From IMG/VR virus record IMGVR_UViG_3300035517_000383, positions 32,001 to 96,000 of that record: a stretch of DNA of 64,000 nucleotides. One strand, written 5' to 3'. This stretch comes from a virus. Lineage: Duplodnaviria > Caudoviricetes. Positions 17,238-43,053 of the stretch are shown here, piece after piece. A model generated the notes under the pieces. That model saw nothing but the letters and a program-made list of their open reading frames with translations, was not told the origin of the DNA and did no database searches. The number at the start of each line of letters is the position of its first letter. Position 1 is the first letter of the stretch. The translations under genes and the position numbers were made by a program.

Positions 17238-18470
17238 TTATTTCTTAACAATTACAGCTTGTATTTTATCAATAGGTTTACCAAAAGAACCTGCATAATC
17301 AGTATCTTGAATTACCCAATCGTAATAGTTCTTTGAAGAAGTTGTTGAAACTCTATATTTAACTTGATATTCGTCACAGTTACTTAATACCATTTGAATA
17401 GCATCAATTTGCTGACTTTTTAATCCAGCACAGCCTATGTTCCAATCATTTATATTATATTTTGTAATCCAGCTAAGCCAGCCGCCATTCTTAATATGAA
17501 CACGATATTTTAAAGTTCCTTTTGTTACTGTTGCGGCAAGTCCACTAATAGCTTTGTTTTCAACACCAGAATATCCCATATCATTTGTATCATTATAATT
17601 TGTAATTTCACTATACCATTTTCCATTAGTATATACTCGATATTTTATATCGGGAACTGTTGTGGAACTAGATGTTGAAGTTGAAGCATTATTACTATAA
17701 ACACTTTTTCCATTTTCATCAAAAACACTATATCCAGTTTTACAAGCTTTCTTTGCGTTTTCAAGAGAGGAATATGCTCCAATTTGAGAAGAAGCATCCT
17801 CCCATGCTTTTCTTACTCTATAAGTAACTGTTTTCGTTGCTGCCGCAGCGACATTTGTAGAATTATTGTTGCCTTTTAACTTATTTAATGCTGTTGAAAC
17901 ATTAGTTTTAAAAGTTGACCAATGCGGCAAAATATAGATGGGACAATTCTTCTTTGAATTCGAAGCAGTATTAAGATAATCAATTGTACCGGTTTTTCCA
18001 TCTTTAACATTAAGCCAATGAGTATGAGTAAATAAATTCTTTTCAACAGTTAAATTGTAAAGATTCAATAAATAAGCAACCAATTTAATAGCATTAGCTT
18101 CTGCTTTAGTAGAATTACCAATTACCTCAATCGCAATAGTCTTTCTATTGCCGTCACCATTTCCATCTGCAGCGTGCCAGCCAGACAAAGTTAAAGGTAA
18201 ACATTGCCAAGCACAAATATCATCTACATAAAAATGTACTCTTACATCCTTCATATTTCCATTTACAGTACTTCTTAAATATTGTTCTGCCATTGTTGTA
18301 CTTGAAGATACTGAAATAGCTTCTGTGTTATGAACCGTTACACCCAAAGGAACAGAAGGAAGATTGGCTGTTGGCATATCTATATTATTAGGATTGTGTT
18401 TAGTAAGTAAATATTCTTTTACTGTCAATCCATTTGCATTATAAGTTTTATCAGGATTTAAAAAACTCAT
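17238..18470 (-). CDS. endolysin, N-acetylmuramoyl-L-alanine amidase (Amidase_2) with C-terminal cell-wall-binding repeats
   Basis: VTVHNT, VHFYVDD, GWHAADG.GN.KTIAIE, THTHW and KNCP motifs; C-terminal YRV..W repeats. Confidence 0.9.
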   Translation of the reverse strand: MSFLNPDKTYNANGLTVKEYLLTKHNPNNIDMPTANLPSVPLGVTVHNTEAISVSSSTTMAEQYLRSTVNGNMKDVRVHFYVDDICAWQCLPLTLSGWHAADGNGDGNRKTIAIEVIGNSTKAEANAIKLVAYLLNLYNLTVEKNLFTHTHWLNVKDGKTGTIDYLNTASNSKKNCPIYILPHWSTFKTNVSTALNKLKGNNNSTNVAAAATKTVTYRVRKAWEDASSQIGAYSSLENAKKACKTGYSVFDENGKSVYSNNASTSTSSSTTVPDIKYRVYTNGKWYSEITNYNDTNDMGYSGVENKAISGLAATVTKGTLKYRVHIKNGGWLSWITKYNINDWNIGCAGLKSQQIDAIQMVLSNCDEYQVKYRVSTTSSKNYYDWVIQDTDYAGSFGKPIDKIQAVIVKK

Positions 18471-25794: not shown

Positions 25795-26763
25795 TTGAAA
25801 GTAATAGAATTATTTGCGGGAATTGGTGCACCAAGAATGGCACTAAAAAATTTAGGAATACAACATGATGTAATTGGAATTAGTGAAATAGATAAAAATG
25901 CTATTAAAATGTATAATATGATTCATGGAGAAACAAATAACTTTGGAGATATATCTCAAATAGAAAAACTCCCTTATTGTGATTTTTTACATTTTTCTTC
26001 TCCTTGTCAGAGTTTTTCTCAAAGCGGCAAGAAAAATGGATTAGAAGGTTCAAGTGGTATAATTGTAGAAGTGTATAGATTAATGGATAATTTATATGAA
26101 CGCAAAGAGCTACCGAAAGCTATTTCTTTTGAAAACGTACCTACTCTATATACTAAATTTCGAGATGTTTTTGATGATTTAATAGAACGTTTTAAAAATT
26201 GGGGATATAATGTTTATTACAATACCTTATCGGCACAATATTTTAATAATCCTACTGCTAGAAGTCGTTTATTTATAATAGGAATTAGAAAAGATTGTGA
26301 CACAGGAACATTTATAATGCCTCAAAATACTAATTTAACAAAAATAAGACTAAAAGATTATTTAGTTGATAATGTTGATAAAAAGTACTACTGGCCGCAT
26401 GAGGTAATCTTTCATAGTTTAAATGACAACGAAGAAAAAATAGATACTACTAGAAAACTTGGTTGGCTAGAGACAGCTTGTGGACATGAAACTCAGAGTA
26501 ATAGAGTTTGGAGCAAAGAAGGATTTTGTCCTACTATCACTTGTTATTCACAATTTCTAATCAGAGAAGGGTCAGGTGTGTATAGAAAATTAACTGAGGA
26601 AGAATATTGGAGAATTCAAGGATTTTCTCAAAATGATTTTGAAAAAATTCAGAAAGATTTTTCTAGGTCAGCAATTATTAAAGCAGTAGGAAATTCTATT
26701 GCATTAGGGCCTCTTGAAGCAATTTATTCTAATCTCTTTTCTTCTGTTCCTTCTTTGATTTAA
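25795..26763 (+). CDS. DNA cytosine-C5 methyltransferase
   Basis: ELFAGIG, SPCQSFS, FENV, RSRLF and GNSI motifs. Confidence 0.93.
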   Translation: MKVIELFAGIGAPRMALKNLGIQHDVIGISEIDKNAIKMYNMIHGETNNFGDISQIEKLPYCDFLHFSSPCQSFSQSGKKNGLEGSSGIIVEVYRLMDNLYERKELPKAISFENVPTLYTKFRDVFDDLIERFKNWGYNVYYNTLSAQYFNNPTARSRLFIIGIRKDCDTGTFIMPQNTNLTKIRLKDYLVDNVDKKYYWPHEVIFHSLNDNEEKIDTTRKLGWLETACGHETQSNRVWSKEGFCPTITCYSQFLIREGSGVYRKLTEEEYWRIQGFSQNDFEKIQKDFSRSAIIKAVGNSIALGPLEAIYSNLFSSVPSLI

Positions 26764-31999: not shown

Positions 32000-34129
32000 A
32001 TGGTAGTTTTAAAGAAAAATGGAGCATTTGAATACGATGATACAAAAATTCAACACGCTATAATACAAGCATGGAATCAAATTGGTTATCCAGATTTTAA
32101 TAAGGTTAAGGACTTGGTTAATGAAGTTAATAGTTTAGTATTAAAGGAATCTAAGAATAATGAAATTGAAGTTGAAAAAATTGAAAATTTTGTTATGAGT
32201 ATTCTTTATAGGGAAGTCCCAGATGTAGCAAGAGAATATAGTGCTTATAAAATGGACAAGGAGAGAGCAATAAAGAATCCTACGGAAATTGAAAAGGTTC
32301 TTTTTTGTAATAATGAAGTTTCGCAAGAAAATGCCAATAAAAACAATGAACTTACTCATATTAAAAATGCATATCTCGCTGAAATTCCGAGTAGAGAGAT
32401 GATGGATAAACTCCTTCCACAAGAATGTATTGATGCTCACGAAAGAAAAATTGTTTATTTCCATGATTACTCCTATAGTGCGAGAGATAATTTTAATTGT
32501 GAACTACTTAATCTTGAGGAATTGTTTAAGGGTTGCGAAATTAATGGTACTTGGGTTGAAACACCAAAAAGCTTTCGTACAGCCTGCACAGTAGCTACAC
32601 AAATTCTTTGTCATGTATGCTCCAATACCTATGGCGGCACAACAATAAATTTATTACATTTAGCAAAATTTGTTGATGTTAGTCGAAAAAAGTTAAGAAA
32701 AAAATATAAAAAATACAATTTTTCACAAGATGTTTATAATCAACTTGTTGAGGATGAGTTAAAAAATGAAATAAAAGATGGAATGCAAACTTTTCAATAT
32801 CAATGTCAAACATTATGTTCTAGTGTTGGACAGGCAGTATTTTTAACTGTTTCTGTCTATTTAGGAGAAGCGGGAAAGTATATTGATGATTTGATTATGG
32901 TCTTTACTGAAATGCTAAAACAAAGAATTCAAGGATTAAAAGATTCAAGTGGGCATTATGTTAATCCTAATTTTCCCAAAATTCTATATGCTTTAGATGA
33001 AAATACAATGCGTGGTGGAAAATACTATAATGTAACAAGACTTTGTGCAGAATGTACTGCAAAAAGACTCGTACCAGATTATATGAGTGTTAAAAAGCAT
33101 ATAGAACTTAAAGGGGTTTATACTCCAAGCATGGGTTGTAGGGCACTTTTGTCCCCATATAAAAATAAAGACGGAAATTATGTAACATGGTCACGTTTTA
33201 ACTGTGGAGTTCAAACACTAAACTTGCCATATATTGCTATGGAAAATAATTTAAATCATTCGGAGGAGATTTTGTTTAAAAATTTGGAGCATTATTTACA
33301 AATTGCTTATAGAGATTTATTATGGAGAGTAAATCATGTAGCTAAAATAAAAGCTAAATCCTGTCCAGTTCTTTATGTTTATGGTGGTGTAGCAAGATTA
33401 AATCCAGAAGATGATTTATCGAGTTTGGTTTATGGTGGTTATGCTACAGTTACTATTGGTTATATTGGTCTATATGAAACTGTAAAGTATATCACAGGAG
33501 AAAATCATTGGGAGGGAAAGGGAAAAATTCTTGCTCACAAAATTCTCGATTTTATTAACGAACACAATGATAAGCTTGGAAAAGAGATAAATGTATCAAT
33601 TGCCTTATATGCTACTCCTTCTGAAACCTTAACAGATAAGGTTGCTAGAGCTTGCTTAAAAGATTTCGGGCAAATTGGAGATGGAACACAAAGAACTTAT
33701 CTTACTAACGGCTATCACGTTCCTGTATTTGAAAAGATTGATGCTTTTTCTAAATTAACTGAGGAAGCTCAATTTAGTGATAAAACTAGTGGAGGTTCTA
33801 TTAGTTATGTTGAATTACCTAATCTCTCTGGTAATATAGATACTGTCCTTGAAATAATTGAACATATAGGTAATACAAGTTTATATGCAGAATTAAATTC
33901 AGAAGTAAGTCAGTGCGAAAATCCAGAATGCGGATTTAGCGGTTATGATTTTAAGAAAATAATTACAAAAGATGGAATCTCTTGGCAATGTCCAAAGTGC
34001 GGTGAGACTGAACGTGTTAGAACATCATATCGTGTATGTGGTTATTTATCAAACTTAACTAAGTTAACTCGTGGAAGAAGTTATGATGTATTTGAAAGAA
34101 CAAAACACGTAAATTTAGAAGAAGATTGA
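32000..34129 (+). CDS. nrdD: anaerobic ribonucleoside-triphosphate reductase
   Basis: ATP cone, NC, MGCR, TPSE, TNGYH, Zn-binding Cys pairs, RVCGYL glycyl-radical loop. Confidence 0.95.
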   Translation: MVVLKKNGAFEYDDTKIQHAIIQAWNQIGYPDFNKVKDLVNEVNSLVLKESKNNEIEVEKIENFVMSILYREVPDVAREYSAYKMDKERAIKNPTEIEKVLFCNNEVSQENANKNNELTHIKNAYLAEIPSREMMDKLLPQECIDAHERKIVYFHDYSYSARDNFNCELLNLEELFKGCEINGTWVETPKSFRTACTVATQILCHVCSNTYGGTTINLLHLAKFVDVSRKKLRKKYKKYNFSQDVYNQLVEDELKNEIKDGMQTFQYQCQTLCSSVGQAVFLTVSVYLGEAGKYIDDLIMVFTEMLKQRIQGLKDSSGHYVNPNFPKILYALDENTMRGGKYYNVTRLCAECTAKRLVPDYMSVKKHIELKGVYTPSMGCRALLSPYKNKDGNYVTWSRFNCGVQTLNLPYIAMENNLNHSEEILFKNLEHYLQIAYRDLLWRVNHVAKIKAKSCPVLYVYGGVARLNPEDDLSSLVYGGYATVTIGYIGLYETVKYITGENHWEGKGKILAHKILDFINEHNDKLGKEINVSIALYATPSETLTDKVARACLKDFGQIGDGTQRTYLTNGYHVPVFEKIDAFSKLTEEAQFSDKTSGGSISYVELPNLSGNIDTVLEIIEHIGNTSLYAELNSEVSQCENPECGFSGYDFKKIITKDGISWQCPKCGETERVRTSYRVCGYLSNLTKLTRGRSYDVFERTKHVNLEED

Positions 34130-34256: not shown

Positions 34257-34805
34257 ATGGTTGGAATTTATTCTTTTACAAATATAATTAATGGAAAAGT
34301 CTACATTGGTAAGTCAGTTGATATAATTCGTAGATATAACGAACATATGGATTTTAGTCGTTATGCAACTCAATATGAGGATGAATTTCATTTTTTATTA
34401 AATGAACATCCCGAAAATTTTATATTTCAAATACTCGAAATTTGCAATAAAGAAGAACTTAATGAAAAAGAGGCTTATTATATAAATTATTATAATTCAA
34501 TAGAAAGTGGCTATAATAAAATTAAGGCTTCTAACAATTTTTATGAGGATAGCTGTGCGGCCGTCCCATCAAAAAGAGAGATAATAAAAATGATAACAAA
34601 CTTACTTGAAAAACCTTTATTTAAAGAAGATAAAGAAAAGTTAGCGAGATTTTTTAATTATAAAGGTTCTAAAGGACAATTATTAAAATGGAGAACAATT
34701 AAACAGATTATTATTGATAAGGGTTTTGATGTTGTAGAATCTAAAAGATTTTTTAATGGAAAAACGGTTAATTGTTCTATTATCAGATTAAGATGGGATG
34801 AATAA
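34257..34805 (+). CDS. free-standing GIY-YIG endonuclease
   Basis: GIYSFTNIINGKVYIGKS..RRYNEH..E..GYN; has its own promoter. Confidence 0.8.
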   Translation: MVGIYSFTNIINGKVYIGKSVDIIRRYNEHMDFSRYATQYEDEFHFLLNEHPENFIFQILEICNKEELNEKEAYYINYYNSIESGYNKIKASNNFYEDSCAAVPSKREIIKMITNLLEKPLFKEDKEKLARFFNYKGSKGQLLKWRTIKQIIIDKGFDVVESKRFFNGKTVNCSIIRLRWDE

Positions 34806-35301: not shown

Positions 35302-35844
35302 ATGAATTATCAAAAAATTAATTATTTTGACACCGCTAATGCACGAGGTCTATCAACTGTTTTATGGGTCAGTGGCTGTGAACATTATTGTGAGGATTGC
35401 TTTAATAAGGAGACTTGGAGTTTTGATAGTGGAAAAGAATTAACACAAAATAAAATTCGAGAAATTATTGCTTCTTTGAAGAATCGTCATATTAATAATT
35501 TTGTACTTAGTGGTGGTGACCCCTTGCACCCAAAGAACATAAGTGATACAATAGAGTTATGTAAGAAAATCAGACAAGAGGTTGAGGATATTAATATAAT
35601 TATTTACACTGGATATACTGTGAATGAATTATGGAATAGGGGTGAATATATGACCCTGTTTTCAATTGTGGATATTTTAATTGATGGTAGATATGATAAA
35701 ACTAAGCCTACTAAGGGATTAGATTATCGAGGTAGTACTAACCAAAGAGCAATTCAGTTTAAAGTTGATAAGAATGGAAAAATAATTGGTTATTATGATA
35801 AAAGCGATTTTTATTTTAAAGAATCTCAATTCATTATATCTTAG
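35302..35844 (+). CDS. nrdG: anaerobic RNR activating enzyme (radical SAM)
   Basis: GCEHYCEDCFN, SGGDP, YTGY, DG.Y, RGSTNQ. The final codon is TAG, so the protein may extend 4 codons to TAA. Confidence 0.93.
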   Translation: MNYQKINYFDTANARGLSTVLWVSGCEHYCEDCFNKETWSFDSGKELTQNKIREIIASLKNRHINNFVLSGGDPLHPKNISDTIELCKKIRQEVEDINIIIYTGYTVNELWNRGEYMTLFSIVDILIDGRYDKTKPTKGLDYRGSTNQRAIQFKVDKNGKIIGYYDKSDFYFKESQFIIS

Positions 35845-35911
35845 TTTATAAATTAATACTTATTATTAGTTAATTATTTGACTTTTTTATAAAAATATGA
35901 TATACTATATA

Positions 35912-36482
35912 AGTAAGATAAAATTCTTATTTACGGTTAGTTTTACTAACTGATTACCTCTACGATATATTCGTAACTACAAGTGAATAGCTAAGTAAGA
36001 ACTGATACAACACTAATGGATTGTACCACTGTATGAACAGCAAATTTAAGACAAAATGTTTTAATTTTAAATTAAACTAAATTGCCTTAACGCAGTAATG
36101 ACGCTGTAAAAGATACTGCGATAACAAAAAGAAATAAAGGGACTGTTGGGATGATAGGCTCTTTATTTCCATGTCTTTATAGTTTAATAAGCTGAGCAGT
36201 AGAAATTTATTCGTTTAATAAATATCGTAATATTAATCGTCAAAAAGGTATCTTAAACCTTTGACAAACGTATTGTCATAAAAGTAGGGGTAGGGCTTAT
36301 TGTAAATAGAAGAAACTGATTTGTCTTATAGGAGAGAAGTATAGACAGCACTTAACTTAATATTCTTTTTCAGTTTCAAGCCATCTGTGGTTTAAAGTTA
36401 TATAGTGTAAAAGGAAGAACTCATTTCGTATCAGTGACGGAACAGTTTAAAGCAAAAGACCAGAATTAATTTTCTGGTCTTT
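35912..36482 (+). ncRNA. large structured ncRNA, ROOL-like candidate
   Basis: ~570 nt with no credible ORF, between a TTGACT-17-TATACT promoter (35878) and a terminator (36455-36482). Long-range pairings ACTGATAC/GTATCAGT, ACACTA/TAGTGT, GAAACTGA/TCAGTTTC. Family call is from recollection only. Confidence 0.6.
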
Positions 36483-36485
36483 ATT
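36455..36485 (+). terminator. intrinsic terminator ending the ncRNA
   Basis: AAAGACCAGAA-TTAATT-TTCTGGTCTTT followed by a T-rich tail. Confidence 0.7.
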
Positions 36486-36569
36486 TGTTTTCTCTTTCTT
36501 AGGGAAAAATCTATTTGAAATCGTTCGGGAACAGTTTAGTTTATAATATTTTTAAAGAGGTGAATTAAT

Positions 36570-37718
36570 ATTTTTATAAGTAATCAAAAATATTTTATTG
36601 ATAGAATAAACTCTCATGATGCAAATAAATTTGTAAGTATATACCACTATTCTCATAGCGGCTTTAAAGGTGCAAAATTAAACTTAGGAATTTATAATAT
36701 AAACACTAAAGAATTAGTTGGTGTTTAGCAATGGGGTCGTGCGGCTTAGTCTAAAATAAGACTTGACAGATATGTTAAAGAATCAATTAATATAGATGAA
36801 TATTATGAATTAAATAGATTTTGCATGGCTGATTCAGAAGAAAGAAATAGTGAAAGTCAAGCTATTTCTTTAGGTATAAAATGGATTAAGAAAAATTGTT
36901 AGAATATTAGATTATTAGTCTCTTATTCTGGCAGAAAAGAGGGAAATTATGGATATATTTATTAGGCTACTAATTGGGAGTATTTAGGTTATTTTTTATC
37001 TTCGGCTTTTTGGCGGCTTGACGGAGAAGAAAGACATTAGTTTACCGCTTGGTAGAGATATAAGTTACATGGAAACTAGAATTTAAGTTTTGTTGATGCA
37101 CTTTGTGAAATGTATCACGATGTCCGTTAGATTGAGAGTAAGCAATTTATTTATATAATAAGACTTGACAAAACTCTTACTCCCGCATCGACAGTACTTC
37201 CTTATCCCAAGTCAACAACTGAATATCCTATAGAAACAAACTGTATAATTTATTAGGAGGACAATAAATATTTGGAATATTCTTATAATTTAGAAAAGGA
37301 ACATTTTTATTATAAACCTTATCGAGAAAAAAGAAAAATAGATACAACTTGTTATAAATATGCTGTTTATGAATTAGATGGGACTTTAGAGGGAATTTTT
37401 GATAAACTAGGAGATATTAAAATTGATGGTTATACCTCAGATGGAATTCGTGCAGCCGCAAAAGAAAACAGAAAATACAAGAAAAAATATTTTTTGAGAG
37501 ATTTAGATGCTTCTAATTTTCCCTTACAGTTAGATATAACCCCAATATGCTGGATAGATGAAATTCCATTTTATACAAGACCTGATATTGTACAATATCT
37601 TCAAATTTCTAGACAAGCGGTACAGCAAGCTTGCGTACGTAAAAGTAAAATAATTGGTGGAAAGAATGTTATCTGGGGAGAGGAAAATAAAAATGAGCGA
37701 GTTTCGCACGAAAATTAA
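36570..37718 (+). CDS. mom: Mu Mom-like adenine-modification enzyme with C-terminal NUMOD/HTH-like extension (9 in-frame TAG; start probably ATT)
   Basis: HYS..LGIY..LVGV*QWG..YYELNRF..RNSESQAIS..VSYS..GYIY*ATNWEYLG..KQFIY..PYPK parallels Mu Mom; in frame with ORF 37272; GAGGTG RBS at 36557. Confidence 0.8.
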
Positions 37719-37887
37719 AGCTTATGATAAAGAGGGTAATCTTTATGATTGTGAAATGGTTATAAATAATTGTAAATTGTTTCATAATGAGATAGAACGA
37801 TGTGAAGAAGTCACATTTAACAAGGAAACATCAATACAGTTTATTATTGATAATGCTAAAGAATTATTAGAAAGTCAAGATAAATAA
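37693..37887 (+). CDS. hypothetical protein
   Basis: GAGG RBS before ATG 37693. Confidence 0.5.
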   Translation: MSEFRTKIKAYDKEGNLYDCEMVINNCKLFHNEIERCEEVTFNKETSIQFIIDNAKELLESQDK

Positions 37888-37949
37888 TCTTGACTTTTTC
37901 TTTAGTTTATGATATAATTGTTATAGAAAATAAAAAAGGAGGAAAGTGA

Positions 37950-39806
37950 ATGAGTTATAATGCAAATGATTTAAAAACTCTCTCTGCTGGCGCGGCCTAT
38001 AGAGAAAAATTGGGTATGTATCTTTCAGCAGATTTACAAGAGGCTATTGATTTAGGACTACGAGAGCTTCTTTATAATGCTCAAGATGAATATGAAGCTA
38101 CTCATAAAGATGGAAGTCAAGTATCTATTACAATAGATACTAAAACTAATAAAATTATTGTAGAAGATAATTTAAGAGGTATTCCGTGTTCAATCAGAGA
38201 TGATGGAATTAATTCCCTTACTGCTGCCTGTTTACTACCTCATTCTGGTGCAAAGCATAAGGGTGAAAATGCTTATAAACAGGCGGTAGGTGTCAACGGG
38301 CAAGGAATGAAAATTGTCTGTCATACTTCTAGCTTTTTTGAAATTGAAGTAAAAAGAGATGGAAATATTTACTACCAATCTTTTCATGAAACAGACGAAG
38401 GTGCTGTCCCCAATGATGATGTAAAAATTATAGGAAGCACTTCTTTAACTGGAACAAAAATTACTTATATTCCATCTCCCACTGTATACGGAAAAGATAC
38501 TAAAATTGATATTGACCAACTTAAAAAGAATTTAACGGACTTATCTTATTTTACAAAAGGATTCAAAATCATTTTAGTTGTAGATGGAATTAAAACTGAA
38601 TTTTATTCAGAAAATGGACTTTTGGACGGTCTAGATTCTACACTAAGATACCATAAGAATGCTTTATATTTTCAAAAGGATTACAATGATTGTAGTGTGG
38701 AAATAGCAATTCAATGGAATAAAAAGCATGGGGAAATTAAACCTTATGCAAATAATTTGTATGTAAGAGATGGTGGCGCATTTATTGTAGGTTTTAAAAG
38801 GTCATTAACAACCACGTTTAATAGACTAGCTAATAAAAATTTTTCAGGAGACTTAATTAGAAAAACATTAGAAGGATATGTTAGTGTAAAAGTTTCTGAT
38901 GTTCAATTTTCAAATCAGGCTAAAACTGCTTTAGCTAATAAAGAAGCTCAAACTGCAACTTCTGCAGCAACTAAAGAAGCTTTAGAAACTTTTGCAAATA
39001 TTTTTAGAGATGATTTTTTTGCAATTGTCGAGGTACTATCAAAAGAAGAAAAAGCTGATAAGGCCGCGGAGAAAGCAAGAGAAAATGCACTAAAACGAGA
39101 TAATGAAATTAATAAAGAACTAAAGAAAAAAACAATTTTAGCGGGGAAACTTGCTGATTGTAGATACCATGATGAGAAATCTCAATTGATTATAGTAGAA
39201 GGCTTGTCAGCATTAGGCAGTATAATAAAATCAAGAAATAGTGATTATACAGCCGCTTTTCCATTGACAGGTAAAATTCTCAATGTACTAAAAAGTACAG
39301 AAGATGAACAAATTTCAAACGAAGTATTAAAAAATCTCCATACTGCTATTGGAGCTGGTTTTGGTTGTAATTTTAATATGAAAAAGATGAGATATGGAAG
39401 AATCGTTTTTGTGTGTGATGCAGATGAAGATGGATATTCTATTATGTGTTTGCTTTTGGCTTTTATGTATAAATATTATCCAGAATTGTTAAGACAGAAA
39501 AAGGTCTATTGGGGACAGACACCATTGTTTAAGGTTACAACAAAACAAGATAAAGTTTATTATGCATATACAGAAAAAGAACTCGAATCATTACCAGATG
39601 GTGATATTTTAAGAGCAAAAGGAATTGGAGAACTTGAACCAGAAGATTTTAAAAATACTCTTTTTTCAAAAGAAGGTAGATATATTCCTTTTAGTTTTGA
39701 AGATGCAGAAAAAGCAAATTATTATTTTGATGTATTACTTGGAGAGAATATTAAAGAACGTAAGGAATACATTAGTAAAAATGCAGATTTTGACGCTTTT
39801 GATTAA
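37950..39806 (+). CDS. gyrB: type IIA topoisomerase subunit B (GyrB/ParE-like)
   Basis: ELLYNAQDE, DNLRGIP, HSGAK, GVNGQG, GKLADC, VEGLSA, PLTGKILN, DADEDG, KGIGE. Confidence 0.9.
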   Translation: MSYNANDLKTLSAGAAYREKLGMYLSADLQEAIDLGLRELLYNAQDEYEATHKDGSQVSITIDTKTNKIIVEDNLRGIPCSIRDDGINSLTAACLLPHSGAKHKGENAYKQAVGVNGQGMKIVCHTSSFFEIEVKRDGNIYYQSFHETDEGAVPNDDVKIIGSTSLTGTKITYIPSPTVYGKDTKIDIDQLKKNLTDLSYFTKGFKIILVVDGIKTEFYSENGLLDGLDSTLRYHKNALYFQKDYNDCSVEIAIQWNKKHGEIKPYANNLYVRDGGAFIVGFKRSLTTTFNRLANKNFSGDLIRKTLEGYVSVKVSDVQFSNQAKTALANKEAQTATSAATKEALETFANIFRDDFFAIVEVLSKEEKADKAAEKARENALKRDNEINKELKKKTILAGKLADCRYHDEKSQLIIVEGLSALGSIIKSRNSDYTAAFPLTGKILNVLKSTEDEQISNEVLKNLHTAIGAGFGCNFNMKKMRYGRIVFVCDADEDGYSIMCLLLAFMYKYYPELLRQKKVYWGQTPLFKVTTKQDKVYYAYTEKELESLPDGDILRAKGIGELEPEDFKNTLFSKEGRYIPFSFEDAEKANYYFDVLLGENIKERKEYISKNADFDAFD

Positions 39807-39865
39807 TATTGACTTTTTCTTAGAAATATGATATAATATATGTGTAATAAAAAAGGAGTGATTAT

Positions 39866-42492
39866 ATGAGAGAAATTGTTACTGATGGAGAATTAGAAGT
39901 ATCTGATGCACTTCCAAATTTTTACGTTCCTTATGCATCATATGTAATTCAAACAAGAGCATTACCTGATGCGAGGGATGGCTTAAAAACAGGGGCGCGC
40001 TTTATTTTGTATGCTCAATACAAAAATAAAAATACTTTTAAAAACAAGAGAAGAAAAGCCACAGCTACAAAATCGGCAGCAATGATGTTCAGCCCACATG
40101 GTAAATAATATTGCCTGTTATACCTTTTCTCAGTAATGAGGGTGTAAAAGCTAACGGGGAAAGCTAAGGGTTTCTATGCTAATCCCGTGGGAATTAATTT
40201 ACTTCTTTTAAAGAAATAAATTAAAACCTGTACAGACTATCCTTGGAACGAAGGAGTAAGAGAACTATTTTCTCTGAAATGGGTATTTCTATTTTATAGA
40301 TAAGATATAGTCGATACCTACAGAAATGTGGGAATAATATGGATGCGAGTATTTATGGAAACGCAGTAAGAATGAGTCAAGATTTTTCCTTACGCTACCC
40401 TTTAATTGATACTCACGGTAATAATGGTAGCTTAATGCATAATAACGACTTTGCGGCCGATAGGTATTTGGAAATGCGAAGTGGTGAGATTGCAGATGAA
40501 ATGACTAATTTACTGCAAAAAGAAACTATTGATAAATGGAAACTTAATTATACAGAGGAAGAAGAATATCCAACTTATTTTCCAACAACATTCCCAAATA
40601 GTTTAGTAAATGGAAATTTTGGAATCGGAGTAAGTTTAGCTTCTTCTATCCCCTCTCATAATTTGAGTGAAGTTTCAGATGCTTTAATAAGACTATTAAA
40701 TAATCCTGAAATTGATTTTGATGAAATTTATTGTCCAATTGATTTTCCGACTGGAGGAACTATAATTAATTCCGAGGAAGTTAAAGAAAGTCATAAAATG
40801 GGAACTGGTAAGGCCGCCATTATTAGAGCGGATATCATATATGATGAAAATACCAATGAGTTAACAGCGATAAATTTACCATATATGGTATTTTCTTCTA
40901 ATGCGACAGTATCAATACAAAATGCAATAGACGAAGGAAAAATTTATGGTATTGAAAGCGTATTTGATGGAACAGATATGGATGGAGTAAAAATAGTCAT
41001 AAAATTATCAAAGAATGCTAATGTAAATAAGGTTGTTAAACTACTATATAAACATACTTTACTACAAAGTAGCTATGGAATAAATATGAATATGTTGGCA
41101 GATGGAAAATATCCGAAATGTTTTACTTGGAAAGAGATGATGGAAACATATTTGGAACATCTTTGTAATATACTTAAAAAATCATATGAATTTGATTTGA
41201 AGAAACTGAAACAAAGACTTCATATTGTAGATGGATTAATTATTGCTATTCAGAATATTGAAGAAGTAATTAAAATTATTAAATCATCTTCTTCGCCCTC
41301 TCTCGCAAAAACAAGATTACAAGAAAATTTTAATTTATCTGAGGAGCAAGGTCAAGCAATACTAAATTTAAAACTTTCAAGACTTGCTAATTTGGAATTA
41401 CAAAAATTAATTGATGAAAAAAATGAATTAAATAAGAATATTGAAAATATTAATCTTATTCTTACAGACGAAAACAAATTTAAAGAAATTGTTACAAGCG
41501 AAATTTTAAGAATTAAAAATAAATATGGAGATAAAAGAAAGACTAAATGTATAAATCTTGATTTTACTTCTGAAGATGAAGATGCAGAACCAATTGAGAA
41601 AAAAGAACTCTTAATTTACTATACAAATCTTGGCAACATTTATACACAGGAATCTACAACTCTTGTAAAAACTCGCCGCGGTGGCAAGGGTACAAAGATT
41701 AAACTTGCAAAAAATGAAGCTGTAATTAAGACTTTAAATGATGATAATTTTAGTTCTTTACTTGTATTTTCAAATCTTGGTAAGATGTACCATCTTTCAA
41801 TTGATGAATTACCTATAAATGGCAAGATTAATATTGCACAGCTTTTTGAGTTTGAAACAGGTGAAAAGCCTACAACTATAACCTCTCTCGCTCGAAAGAA
41901 CGAAATTAATTATTTTGTTTTTGTCACAAAGAACGGAATGATTAAAAAGACAGCAGCTTCTGAATATACAATTAAGCGTGGTAAATCCTTAAAAGCAATT
42001 AACCTTAAAGACGATGACCAAGTAGTTAATGTACTTTTTATGAATAATGAAAAAGTTAGTATCTTGACTAATAATGGAAATTGTGTTATAATAGAGACAG
42101 AAGAAATTAATCCGATTGGAAGAGCAACGGCAGGTGTAAAAGCAATAAAATTATCTCCAGATGATTATGTAATTGATGCTCAGACAGTATCCAACTCGGA
42201 TAAATATCTCATTACTATATCTGAACATGGTCTTATTAAAAAAGCAAGTTTGGATGAATTTCCTACTTGCGGCAGAGCAACAAAAGGCAAGAAGATTTCT
42301 GATACTCGTGAAAATGACCAGATAATTAAACATTTGACTTTAGCACAAGATTGTGATATAATAATTATAGTAAATCAAAAGAACATAAAAATTTCCACTT
42401 CGGAACTTAGAGTTCTTTCAAGAACCGCAACGGGCGTTAAAGCAGTAGACATTGCTGATACAGATGTTGTAGTTGATTTAATTGTAAGTTAG
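39866..42492 (+). CDS. gyrA: type IIA topoisomerase subunit A (GyrA/ParC-like), spliced 39866-40102 + 40342-42492
   Basis: RALPDARDGLK, SPHG|DASIY, AADRY catalytic Tyr, C-terminal pinwheel repeats with a GyrA-box-like TRRGGKG. Confidence 0.9.
40103..40341 (+). mobile_element. group I intron without ORF in gyrA
   Basis: Exon ends in U and intron ends in G; removal restores PHGDAS; R element CAGACTA and S element AAGATATAGTC form P7. Confidence 0.88.
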
Positions 42493-43053
42493 GAATAAGT
42501 CATTTATTTGACTTTTCCTTAGACTTATGATATAATAAAGGAGGAAATTAATGACATTAATTGATAAAATTAATATTATTAAAGAAAATAAAGAATCAGC
42601 AATTAAAGCGTTAAACGCTTATCTTGATTCTATTTATAATCTTACAGACCAATATTTTGATAATGAAAATAATCTCAAAGAGGGTTTAACCCATGACGAA
42701 AATCTTGAAAAATTTATAAAAGAAACTCGTCAAGATGCAGATAAGTTTGAAAAAGTTAGAAGAAAACTTATTGATAATGACTTTGATTTATCCGCTACTG
42801 AAATAGCAAGGGTAGGTTTGGCATATGTTTTTATTAGTACAAGTTGGGATAAGCAAATTACTAATCTCCAGAAAGCTAAGGAAGAAGTTACTAATATTAT
42901 TGAAAAGCTAATGAGTGGAGTTAAGGATTTAAAGACTTAAATAATTGACTTTCAATGAGAATTATGATATAATATTTATATAATAAAGGTTAAGAAAATT
43001 AAATTAAATTAAAAAGTTTATAACTTGACTTTATTAATAAAATATGATATAAT
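42064..43053 (+). promoter_or_regulatory. five tandem consensus sigma-A promoters (TTGACT-17-TATAAT with extended TG)
   Basis: -35 boxes at 42064, 42334, 42508, 42945 and 43025, each exactly 17 nt from TATAAT. Confidence 0.75.
42551..42940 (+). CDS. hypothetical protein
   Basis: GGAGG RBS; own promoter. Confidence 0.65.
   Translation: MTLIDKINIIKENKESAIKALNAYLDSIYNLTDQYFDNENNLKEGLTHDENLEKFIKETRQDADKFEKVRRKLIDNDFDLSATEIARVGLAYVFISTSWDKQITNLQKAKEEVTNIIEKLMSGVKDLKT

Follow-up and report, generated by a model that had tools for sequence, protein, structure and literature searches.

Nine in-frame TAG codons in an apparently intact Mom-family gene of a recoded phage: a candidate case of translational gating by the genetic code

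Stop-codon recoding in phages has widely been proposed to act as a timer and has hardly been tested, most of the examples being structural or lysis genes in late blocks. Could a gene that is interrupted by nine in-frame TAG codons and has no canonical start codon still encode a working DNA modification enzyme, and what would these features mean for the timing and amount of its synthesis? This question is raised by a gene, here called mom, at positions 36570 to 37718 of a 64,000-nucleotide stretch of phage DNA (Duplodnaviria; Caudoviricetes). The stretch, referred to below as the window, comprises positions 32,001 to 96,000 of the IMG/VR virus record IMGVR_UViG_3300035517_000383; coordinates are those of the window unless they are marked as genome coordinates. 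The whole contig is 152,102 bp long, has a GC content of 30.3% and was judged to be 92% complete. An earlier note, made from the letters alone, had singled out the gene as a hidden relative of the Mom protein of phage Mu. On the basis of the current analysis, we consider with a probability of about 0.7 that mom encodes an intact Mom-family enzyme, that its full translation needs nine UAGs to be read as Gln by the phage tRNA(CUA) in addition to initiation at AUU, and that it would be made late and sparingly. The main features of the gene are as follows.

36570..37718, + strand: whole coding sequence, Mom-like GNAT domain plus tandem helix-turn-helix (HTH) tail with TAG read as Gln (reading frame, homolog alignment, model with pLDDT 88).
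36591..37211, + strand: Mom domain, residues 8-214 (Pfam match, Mu Mom alignment, fold).
36726..37256, + strand: span of the nine in-frame TAGs, whose first bases are at 36726, 36747, 36900, 36963, 37038, 37053, 37077, 37128 and 37254.

The frame that begins at 36570 (+) runs through 382 codons with nine in-frame TAGs and without a single TAA or TGA, and ends with TAA at 37716-37718. According to our own composition estimate, a TAA/TGA-free frame of 382 codons has a chance of only ∼1e-10 at 30.3% GC. Under translation table 11, the sole open reading frame (ORF) of at least 80 aa in this region is a 148-aa tail piece (37272-37718), which explains why the catalytic part is missing from standard ORF lists, an absence that had already been remarked upon in the earlier note. 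When TAG was translated as Gln, the protein matched the Pfam family Mom (PF25680) with an E-value of 7.7e-42 and 143.7 bits (curated cut-off 27.1), residues 8-214 being aligned to positions 2-202 of the 202-position profile. It also matched PHROG 1384, 'Mom-like DNA modification protein' (4e-42), and the crystal chain of Mu Mom (PDB 8bv8; 1.7e-18, with 32% identity over ∼205 residues). An AlphaFold2 model generated from 77 homologs had a pLDDT of 88, and its top Foldseek matches were 8bv8_A and 8bv8_B (E 4e-15, target-normalised TM 0.74-0.79), ordinary GNATs following at E 4e-5 or worse; model helices 157-167 and 174-181 sit at the HTH-like insertion of Mu Mom. Thus, profile, sequence and fold all agree with the original suggestion that the protein follows Mu Mom when translated with code 15. 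A six-frame search of the genome revealed a single Mom-family copy (137.4 bits, with eight TAGs inside the match). These results support the assignment of the gene to the Mom family, as a member of a tail-fused subfamily and readable only if TAG is Gln. The subfamily is large and uncharacterised, and its carriers are phages with a low GC content and a size of 115-260 kb. No report tying Mom to recoding emerged from a literature search, and a degenerate DNA pattern for YIY-TAG-ATNWEY had zero matches in IMG/VR.

Is Gln the correct reading of these TAGs? A tRNA gene with anticodon CTA is located at genome 27510-27603 (-), ∼4.4 kb before the window (identified by ARAGORN; Rfam tRNA model, 47.7 bits). 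The TAGs occupy codons 53, 60, 111, 132, 157, 162, 170, 187 and 229 of the gene. Codon 132 falls on a Gln that is invariant from the subfamily through Mu; at codons 60, 157, 162, 170 and 187, Gln is the majority residue or that of the closest homologs; and codon 229 falls on a Lys/Gln column. The same tendency could be measured across 174 TAG sites in 26 recoded relatives, where the mean Gln fraction in the aligned columns, taken from 76 standard-code homologs, was 0.42 compared with a background of 0.043. Judged by these columns, TAG as Gln is the right reading in mom. Recoding of TAG to Gln has been validated previously (PMC9523058). The tRNA(CUA) itself (L156:2510-2603) is 94 nt long and has a long variable arm as in class II tRNAs (Leu, Ser, Tyr); it combines U1-A72, a G3.U70 wobble pair and A73, an odd mix for a Gln-inserting tRNA. 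Two other approaches to TAG decoding were tried. The use of structural proteins of related phages was dropped as these were too diverged (35% identity over 115 residues), and the idea that TAG serves as a true stop near the ends of early genes was rejected, no enrichment being observed (6 sites versus 7.6 expected).

We then compared the catalytic part with that of Mu Mom. Mu H58, Y59, R111, S124 and Y159 are kept as H26, Y27, R83, S96 and Y131; these five residues are invariant or nearly so in 12 diverse Mom-family members and invariant in 77 subfamily members. The two proteins, both encoded by phages, also share the fold with two helices at the HTH-like insertion and the residue corresponding to Mu Q160. 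On the other hand, Mu W48 (a dimer contact) and W181 are not kept here, and the phage protein has a 150-residue C-terminal tandem-HTH tail that is absent from Mu Mom. Mu A148-D149 aligns to S120-G121 and Mu R151 to K123. The replacement of the usual AD by SG, which had been noticed before, is confirmed by the alignment, yet it proved to be the norm of the subfamily rather than a private defect: Gly was found at the Mu-D149 position in 77 of 77 tail-fused members, within a motif S/A-G-R-K-E-G-N-Y-G. All seven phage Moms sampled from outside the subfamily (Mu, PAN70, Melnitz, phiEf11, Vibrio F98, Thornton and LP-083-2) have Asp there. The Mu-R151 column is variable across the family, being I, D, E, S or G in other phage Moms, and does not define Mom membership because it is not conserved. 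On this alignment, G121 is a character of the clade and not a sign of decay. An invariant Glu, E124, lies three residues past G121, and the clade may employ E124 or R122 in place of the Asp, or catalyse a different chemistry.

The 5' end of the gene raises the second part of the question. Two features define it.

36557..36563, + strand: Shine-Dalgarno (SD) sequence GAGGTGA (7-nt anti-SD match, 6 nt before ATT 36570).
36570..36572, + strand: ATT, the likeliest start codon (SD spacing, homolog Met alignment, no canonical alternative).

No in-frame ATG, GTG or TTG is present between TGA 36561 and ATG 36825 (85 codons). A distance of 6 nt is the modal SD spacing in this genome, in which 88 of 148 genes have an SD of at least 5 nt, mostly at 6-9 nt. 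The Met of homologs aligns one codon downstream of the ATT, and a start at ATG 36825 would remove H26, Y27 and R83. In a genome-wide scan, a strong SD before a non-canonical start, with no canonical codon to take its place, was seen for mom and for no other gene. Assemblies of two additional samples contained this DNA as well, with 100% identity in one and one single-nucleotide polymorphism in 2094 nt (at 37378) in the other; the ATT and the TAGs are therefore not assembly errors. The lack of canonical starts, the spacing of GAGGTGA and the Met position of relatives all favor the start proposed in the earlier note, and ATT 36570 appears to be the best-supported one. In Escherichia coli, infC and pcnB are initiated at AUU, a strong ribosome-binding site being combined with the rare codon and giving low, factor-sensitive initiation. 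mom resembles them in that it also pairs a strong SD with AUU, the start being read from sequence and alignment, and differs in that no autoregulatory logic is known for it.

The distribution of TAG in this genome was also examined. TAG is present in 59 of 126 genes of at least 100 aa, and CAG is depleted wherever TAG is common. NrdD, GyrB and DNA polymerase are TAG-free and GyrA has two TAGs, at its ends, whereas tail-fibre-like genes (PHROG matches) have 3-4 and several very large family-less ORFs have 6-28. On the + strand, the gene order is ligase, NrdD, a GIY-YIG protein, NrdG, a gap ending at the terminator-like hairpin at 36455-36482, mom, a second such hairpin at 37869-37899, GyrB, a split GyrA and, later, DNA polymerase. 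mom contains 9 TAG versus 10 CAA/CAG codons, and the 33 other genes of this + strand block 16 versus 325 (Fisher p 5e-7). Thus, mom is a TAG-rich island within a TAG-poor nrdDG-mom-gyrBA block, which is new here. With regard to density, the richest 230-codon windows in the genome have 10, 9 and 9 TAGs, mom being one of the two with 9; it is among the densest TAG stretches as previously noted, though not uniquely so.

A similar pattern recurs in related phages. A scan of viral and metagenome contigs yielded 46 distinct subfamily loci, in which the number of TAGs in mom ranged from 0 to 13, with at least three in 22 loci and at least six in 18. When recoded loci were pooled, mom had 181 TAG versus 416 CAR (CAA or CAG) codons and the flanking genes 109 versus 1071 (p 2.5e-28). 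A paired comparison placed mom above the flanking genes in 18 loci and below them in 9 (Wilcoxon p 5e-4). In the gyrB-like genes that follow mom, 1 TAG was counted versus 163 CAR, and the corresponding mom genes had 72 versus 99. Thus, mom in this phage group consistently belongs to the gene class in which UAG is permitted, next to a gyrB-like gene that is almost TAG-free. Most TAG columns differ from lineage to lineage (61 distinct columns in the 26 relatives). It should be noted that long tblastn matches in other viral contigs had suggested introns in mom; this was rejected, as the matches are tandem Mom paralogs. At loci L013, L049, L056, L064, L080 and L090, distant Mom-family genes are repeated in tandem, with two or three paralogs each.

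What would these features do to expression? Where the host terminates at UAG, the nine in-frame UAGs prevent the synthesis of full-length Mom until they are suppressed, as follows directly from the sequence. Thereafter, the yield should scale as the suppression efficiency to the ninth power multiplied by the poor AUU initiation rate. Mom would thus be absent under the standard code of the host and accumulate to low levels after suppression has set in, despite its TAG-poor nucleotide-metabolism and gyrase neighbours, and the two HTH modules of the tail would probably help the enzyme to hold or select DNA. That the TAGs gate translation to the suppressor-active phase appears well supported.

The possible value of such gating is suggested by Mu. 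Mu Mom moves glycine from Gly-tRNA(Gly) onto adenine N6 in double-stranded DNA at SAS motifs, thereby blocking restriction (PMC13219725); the chemistry given in the earlier note is therefore dated. Mu Mom is lethal on over-expression and is confined to late infection (PMC7261163). Control of Mu mom is exerted by Dam/OxyR, C and Com, whereas here nine UAGs and the AUU would serve. No match to the Mor/C activator (PF08765) was found in the genome, the positive control being detected; a search for Com (PF10122) also gave no genome match, but its control was likewise silent and the result is thus uninformative. In the model of Borges et al., in-frame stops block early translation in recoded gut phages, and in Agate phages a heavily recoded intron homing endonuclease lies inside an early gene (10.1101/2021.08.26.457843). 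Our phage resembles those phages in encoding a suppressor tRNA, in having recoded stops that cluster in certain genes and are avoided in those for replication, and in having a strongly recoded gene embedded in a standard-code block, which would imply translation only after the code switch. It differs from them in three respects: the gated gene is a DNA-hypermodification enzyme, a class unmentioned in that paper; the pattern recurs in many relatives for a single gene, mom; and the endolysin is TAG-free, in contrast with the lysis-gene bias observed there.

A number of observations weigh against this reading. First, TAG 53 falls on a column that is at least 95% Leu and TAG 111 on one that is at least 95% Pro, and Gln may cost activity at these positions. 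The codon 53 column is hydrophobic throughout the family and corresponds to L83 of Mu, in agreement with the early remark that one TAG aligns with a Leu of Mu Mom. Second, the important D149 of Mu is Gly and R151 is Lys throughout the subfamily, and the reaction may differ from that of Mu or be weaker; in Mu, D149A was strongly impaired and R151A was inactive (PMC13219725; PMC7261163). N6-carbamoylmethyl-adenine, which the earlier note gave as the product of Mu Mom, would accordingly be one candidate product of this enzyme. Third, the ATT start is peculiar to this phage, all relatives examined using ATG or TTG, and it may represent a recent loss of the start codon. Fourth, the TAG share of mom (47%) was compared with that of other TAG-bearing genes (31%) and the difference was not significant (p 0.11; 0.006 for the Mom domain alone, uncorrected for multiple testing). 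Nothing forces selection for TAGs, since mom is no clear outlier among TAG-bearing genes. Fifth, the endolysin gene (17238-18470, -; PHROG 15001, 4e-81) has zero TAGs despite TAG-bearing neighbours that include tail-fibre-like genes; thus, TAG use does not simply mark every late gene. Finally, the timing and dose of synthesis, the product formed and any harm to this host are read here from sequence and are therefore stated conditionally.

The most serious rival explanation, though in our opinion an unlikely one, accepts a functional gene and regards the TAGs as passengers that arose by CAG-to-TAG drift under AT pressure in a gene transcribed late for unrelated reasons, at a stage when UAG is read efficiently; the count of nine would then have no regulatory meaning, and the ATT would be a tolerated, slightly deleterious change. 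The non-significant excess of TAG over other TAG-bearing genes fits this explanation, as do the 0-13 range among relatives, the depletion of CAG where TAG is common, and the 61 columns in 26 relatives, since drift predicts that TAG positions should differ between lineages. However, the nine UAGs would impose a strict dependence on suppression anyway, and gating exists whether it was selected or not. Drift also has to accommodate a sharp and conserved class boundary at mom, the gyrB-like neighbour being nearly TAG-free in 10 of 10 recoded loci. In addition, a metagenomic locus that is 53% identical overall (L121:2113-3252) shares four of the nine TAG columns, including the conserved-Leu one, which has thus been kept in two lineages; this sharing points to an old recoded lineage. 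Selection versus drift in a late-expressed gene is the main rival question, and these data fit both. The suggestion in the earlier note that the genetic code replaces the control of Mu mom should accordingly be divided: gating by the code is upheld by a TAG-rich mom in a TAG-poor block, here and in many relatives, whereas neutral accumulation fits the counts equally well, and an adaptive replacement of C/Com/Dam control by the TAGs is something that we can only infer.

It is much less probable that the copy is inactive or decaying, with its start lost, a conserved Leu and a conserved Pro hit, the catalytic Asp missing and no working enzyme made. Such a history would account for the 85 codons without a canonical in-frame start, for the TAGs on the two 95% columns and for G121 where the seven other phage proteins of the family carry Asp. 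Against it, 382 codons of 30% GC DNA contain no TAA, TGA or frameshift, a strong and correctly spaced SD is still present, and three samples yielded the same sequence. The protein retains each of the 59 residues on which the 77 subfamily members agree without exception, and of the 112 columns conserved to 90% or more it departs at 3, which is typical of the family (mean 2.3, maximum 8). The Gly at the D149 position is shared by 77 of 77 subfamily members that otherwise look constrained, and the TAG in the Leu column appears to be old and tolerated rather than a fresh lesion because it is common to the 53%-identical locus. The comparison of dN and dS with relatives that the earlier note had proposed was informative in part: nonsynonymous divergence of the Mom domain was low (dN 0.23-0.26 against relatives of ∼50-60% identity), whereas synonymous divergence was saturated (proportion of synonymous differences, pS, 0.64-0.72) and said little about recent decay. 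When proteins of 81-259 aa were searched with the tail ORF, only the phage's own copies were retrieved, and no relatives at 70%-99% identity. On the whole, the gene looks intact.

We regard as least probable of all, and hardly credible, a third explanation in which initiation at ATT does not occur and only short products are made, either from ATG 36825 or from TTG 37272 as a 148-residue HTH tail that could be a stand-alone DNA-binding protein translated by the standard code. Table 11 does leave the tail (37272-37718) open, with 0 TAGs among its 7 Gln codons, and gene callers list it as a separate 148-aa protein, but in more than 120 homologs of 366-407 aa both parts are joined in one protein, the tails of relatives also bear TAGs, the only stand-alone tail homologs among proteins of 81-259 aa are this phage's own, and a hexamer scan for strong SDs 4-10 nt upstream, which is a partial test, flagged neither internal start.

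The surroundings of mom contain several further elements.

36455..36482, + strand: terminator-like hairpin plus T-run that closes the upstream unit (11-pair stem, then ATTTGTTTTC).
36528..36538, + strand: 11-mer GGAACAGTTTA, a possible regulator site (3 nt upstream of TATAAT).
36542..36547, + strand: TATAAT, a -10-like hexamer (no acceptable -35 at 16-18 nt).
37693..37887, + strand: TAG-free ORF of 64 codons that has a purine-rich ribosome-binding site of its own and ends at the terminator (26-nt overlap with the 3' end of mom).
37869..37899, + strand: terminator-like hairpin at the end of the mom unit, before gyrB (hairpin scan).

On the basis of these elements, mom appears to form its own short unit between two terminator-like hairpins. 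A consensus scan detected no full sigma-70-type site in 36483-36569, and TATAAT may belong to a weak or activator-dependent promoter. The 11-mer GGAACAGTTTA has exactly three copies in 152 kb, at 36439-36449 (+), 36528-36538 (+) and genome 5781 (-), the first two flanking the terminator just upstream of mom. Its role as a shared promoter element was rejected, as none of the three genome copies precedes other TAG-rich genes. A Com-type leader hairpin was rejected as well, the leader (36490-36620) folding no better than shuffled sequences (z 0.78), and an Rfam search over 35800-42600 returned nothing relevant. The small ORF at 37693-37887 has no known family and no counterpart at the mom loci of relatives.

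The C-terminal tail, which sets this protein apart from Mu Mom, is predicted with confidence to form two small modules within residues ∼230-372, a beta-beta-alpha-beta unit followed by a beta-beta-HTH-beta unit.

37353..37502, + strand: tail module 1, residues ∼262-311, beta-beta-alpha-beta (weakly like the C-terminal DNA-binding region of I-HmuI).
37545..37679, + strand: tail module 2, residues ∼326-370, HTH with an ISRQAV motif and then a strand (NUMOD1-like or generic HTH).

Structurally, the tail comes closest to homing endonucleases, I-HmuI (1u3e) and I-TevI (1t2t, 1i3j), which likewise carry small beta-beta-helix/HTH modules in C-terminal tandem; their modules are joined to a nuclease, whereas those of mom are joined to a transferase. 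All of these matches are weak: 1u3e gave Z 5.3 with a root mean square deviation of 4.1 over 64 aligned residues, the DNA-binding domain of I-TevI (1t2t) gave Z 3.6, and Foldseek matches of the tail to I-HmuI/I-TevI had E-values of 0.7 and 2.9, a level at which the use of a common arrangement may explain the likeness. No Pfam HTH or NUMOD1 (PF07453) match was obtained in the mom protein at E up to 1. NUMOD1 was detected in 7 of 77 homologs (best E 1.3e-5), and assorted HTH families in others. Thus, of the NUMOD/HTH-like tail described in the earlier note, the HTH-like character is retained, and the NUMOD1 part applies to a few homologs but not to this protein. The fused architecture of Mom and tail is shared by the more than 120 homolog clusters of 366-407 aa. 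On the predicted structure, the tail likely has a DNA-binding role, and an origin from a homing endonuclease is plausible.

Some additional elements of the genome were recorded. The gyrA gene is split into an 80-aa ORF (39866-40108, +), which matches positions 1-49 of DNA_topoisoIV, and a 751-aa ORF (40243-42498, +), which matches positions 50-431; ∼130 nt separate the two pieces, and an intervening element or a split gene is possible. The free-standing GIY-YIG protein between nrdD and nrdG (34257-34805, +) is TAG-free and probably a homing endonuclease. In the tRNA region upstream of the window, a sub-threshold match to an HDV-like ribozyme (RF02682; 31.6 bits versus a gathering threshold of 44, E 0.0034) at L156:841-911 (-), genome ∼25841-25911, abuts tRNA-Leu(UAA) and recalls the 'theta' ribozymes described beside phage tRNAs (PMC10879173). 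A 123-nt Rfam tRNA match at L156:2813-2935 (-; 50.7 bits) was not called by ARAGORN, and could mark a tRNA gene that is interrupted by an insertion or intron.

Our data have several implications for the Mom family and for recoded phages. Standard gene calling misses genes of this kind, and surveys of modification enzymes, including the published Mom survey based on standard-code ORFs, will under-count them. At least 329 protein clusters belong to the subfamily, metagenomes and large phage contigs being the source of most; lacking the Asp and carrying DNA-binding modules, its members may make a different DNA mark. What appears to be new is thus twofold: an uncharacterised Asp-less, tail-fused Mom clade, and an apparent case of stop-codon gating that is particularly clean and recurs in relatives. 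With one gene, one tRNA(CUA) and a simple read-out of toxicity or modification, mom represents a compact and testable case. A more far-reaching idea, which is tentative and which we would not expect to prevail, is that the Asp-less tail-fused clade is a distinct DNA modifier, using another acyl or aminoacyl donor or making an HTH-targeted mark, and that the number of UAGs (0-13) together with the AUU acts as a selected, tunable timer and dose limiter for a self-harmful enzyme. If true, this would be a clear natural case of code switching doing the work that transcription factors and a translational activator do for Mu mom.

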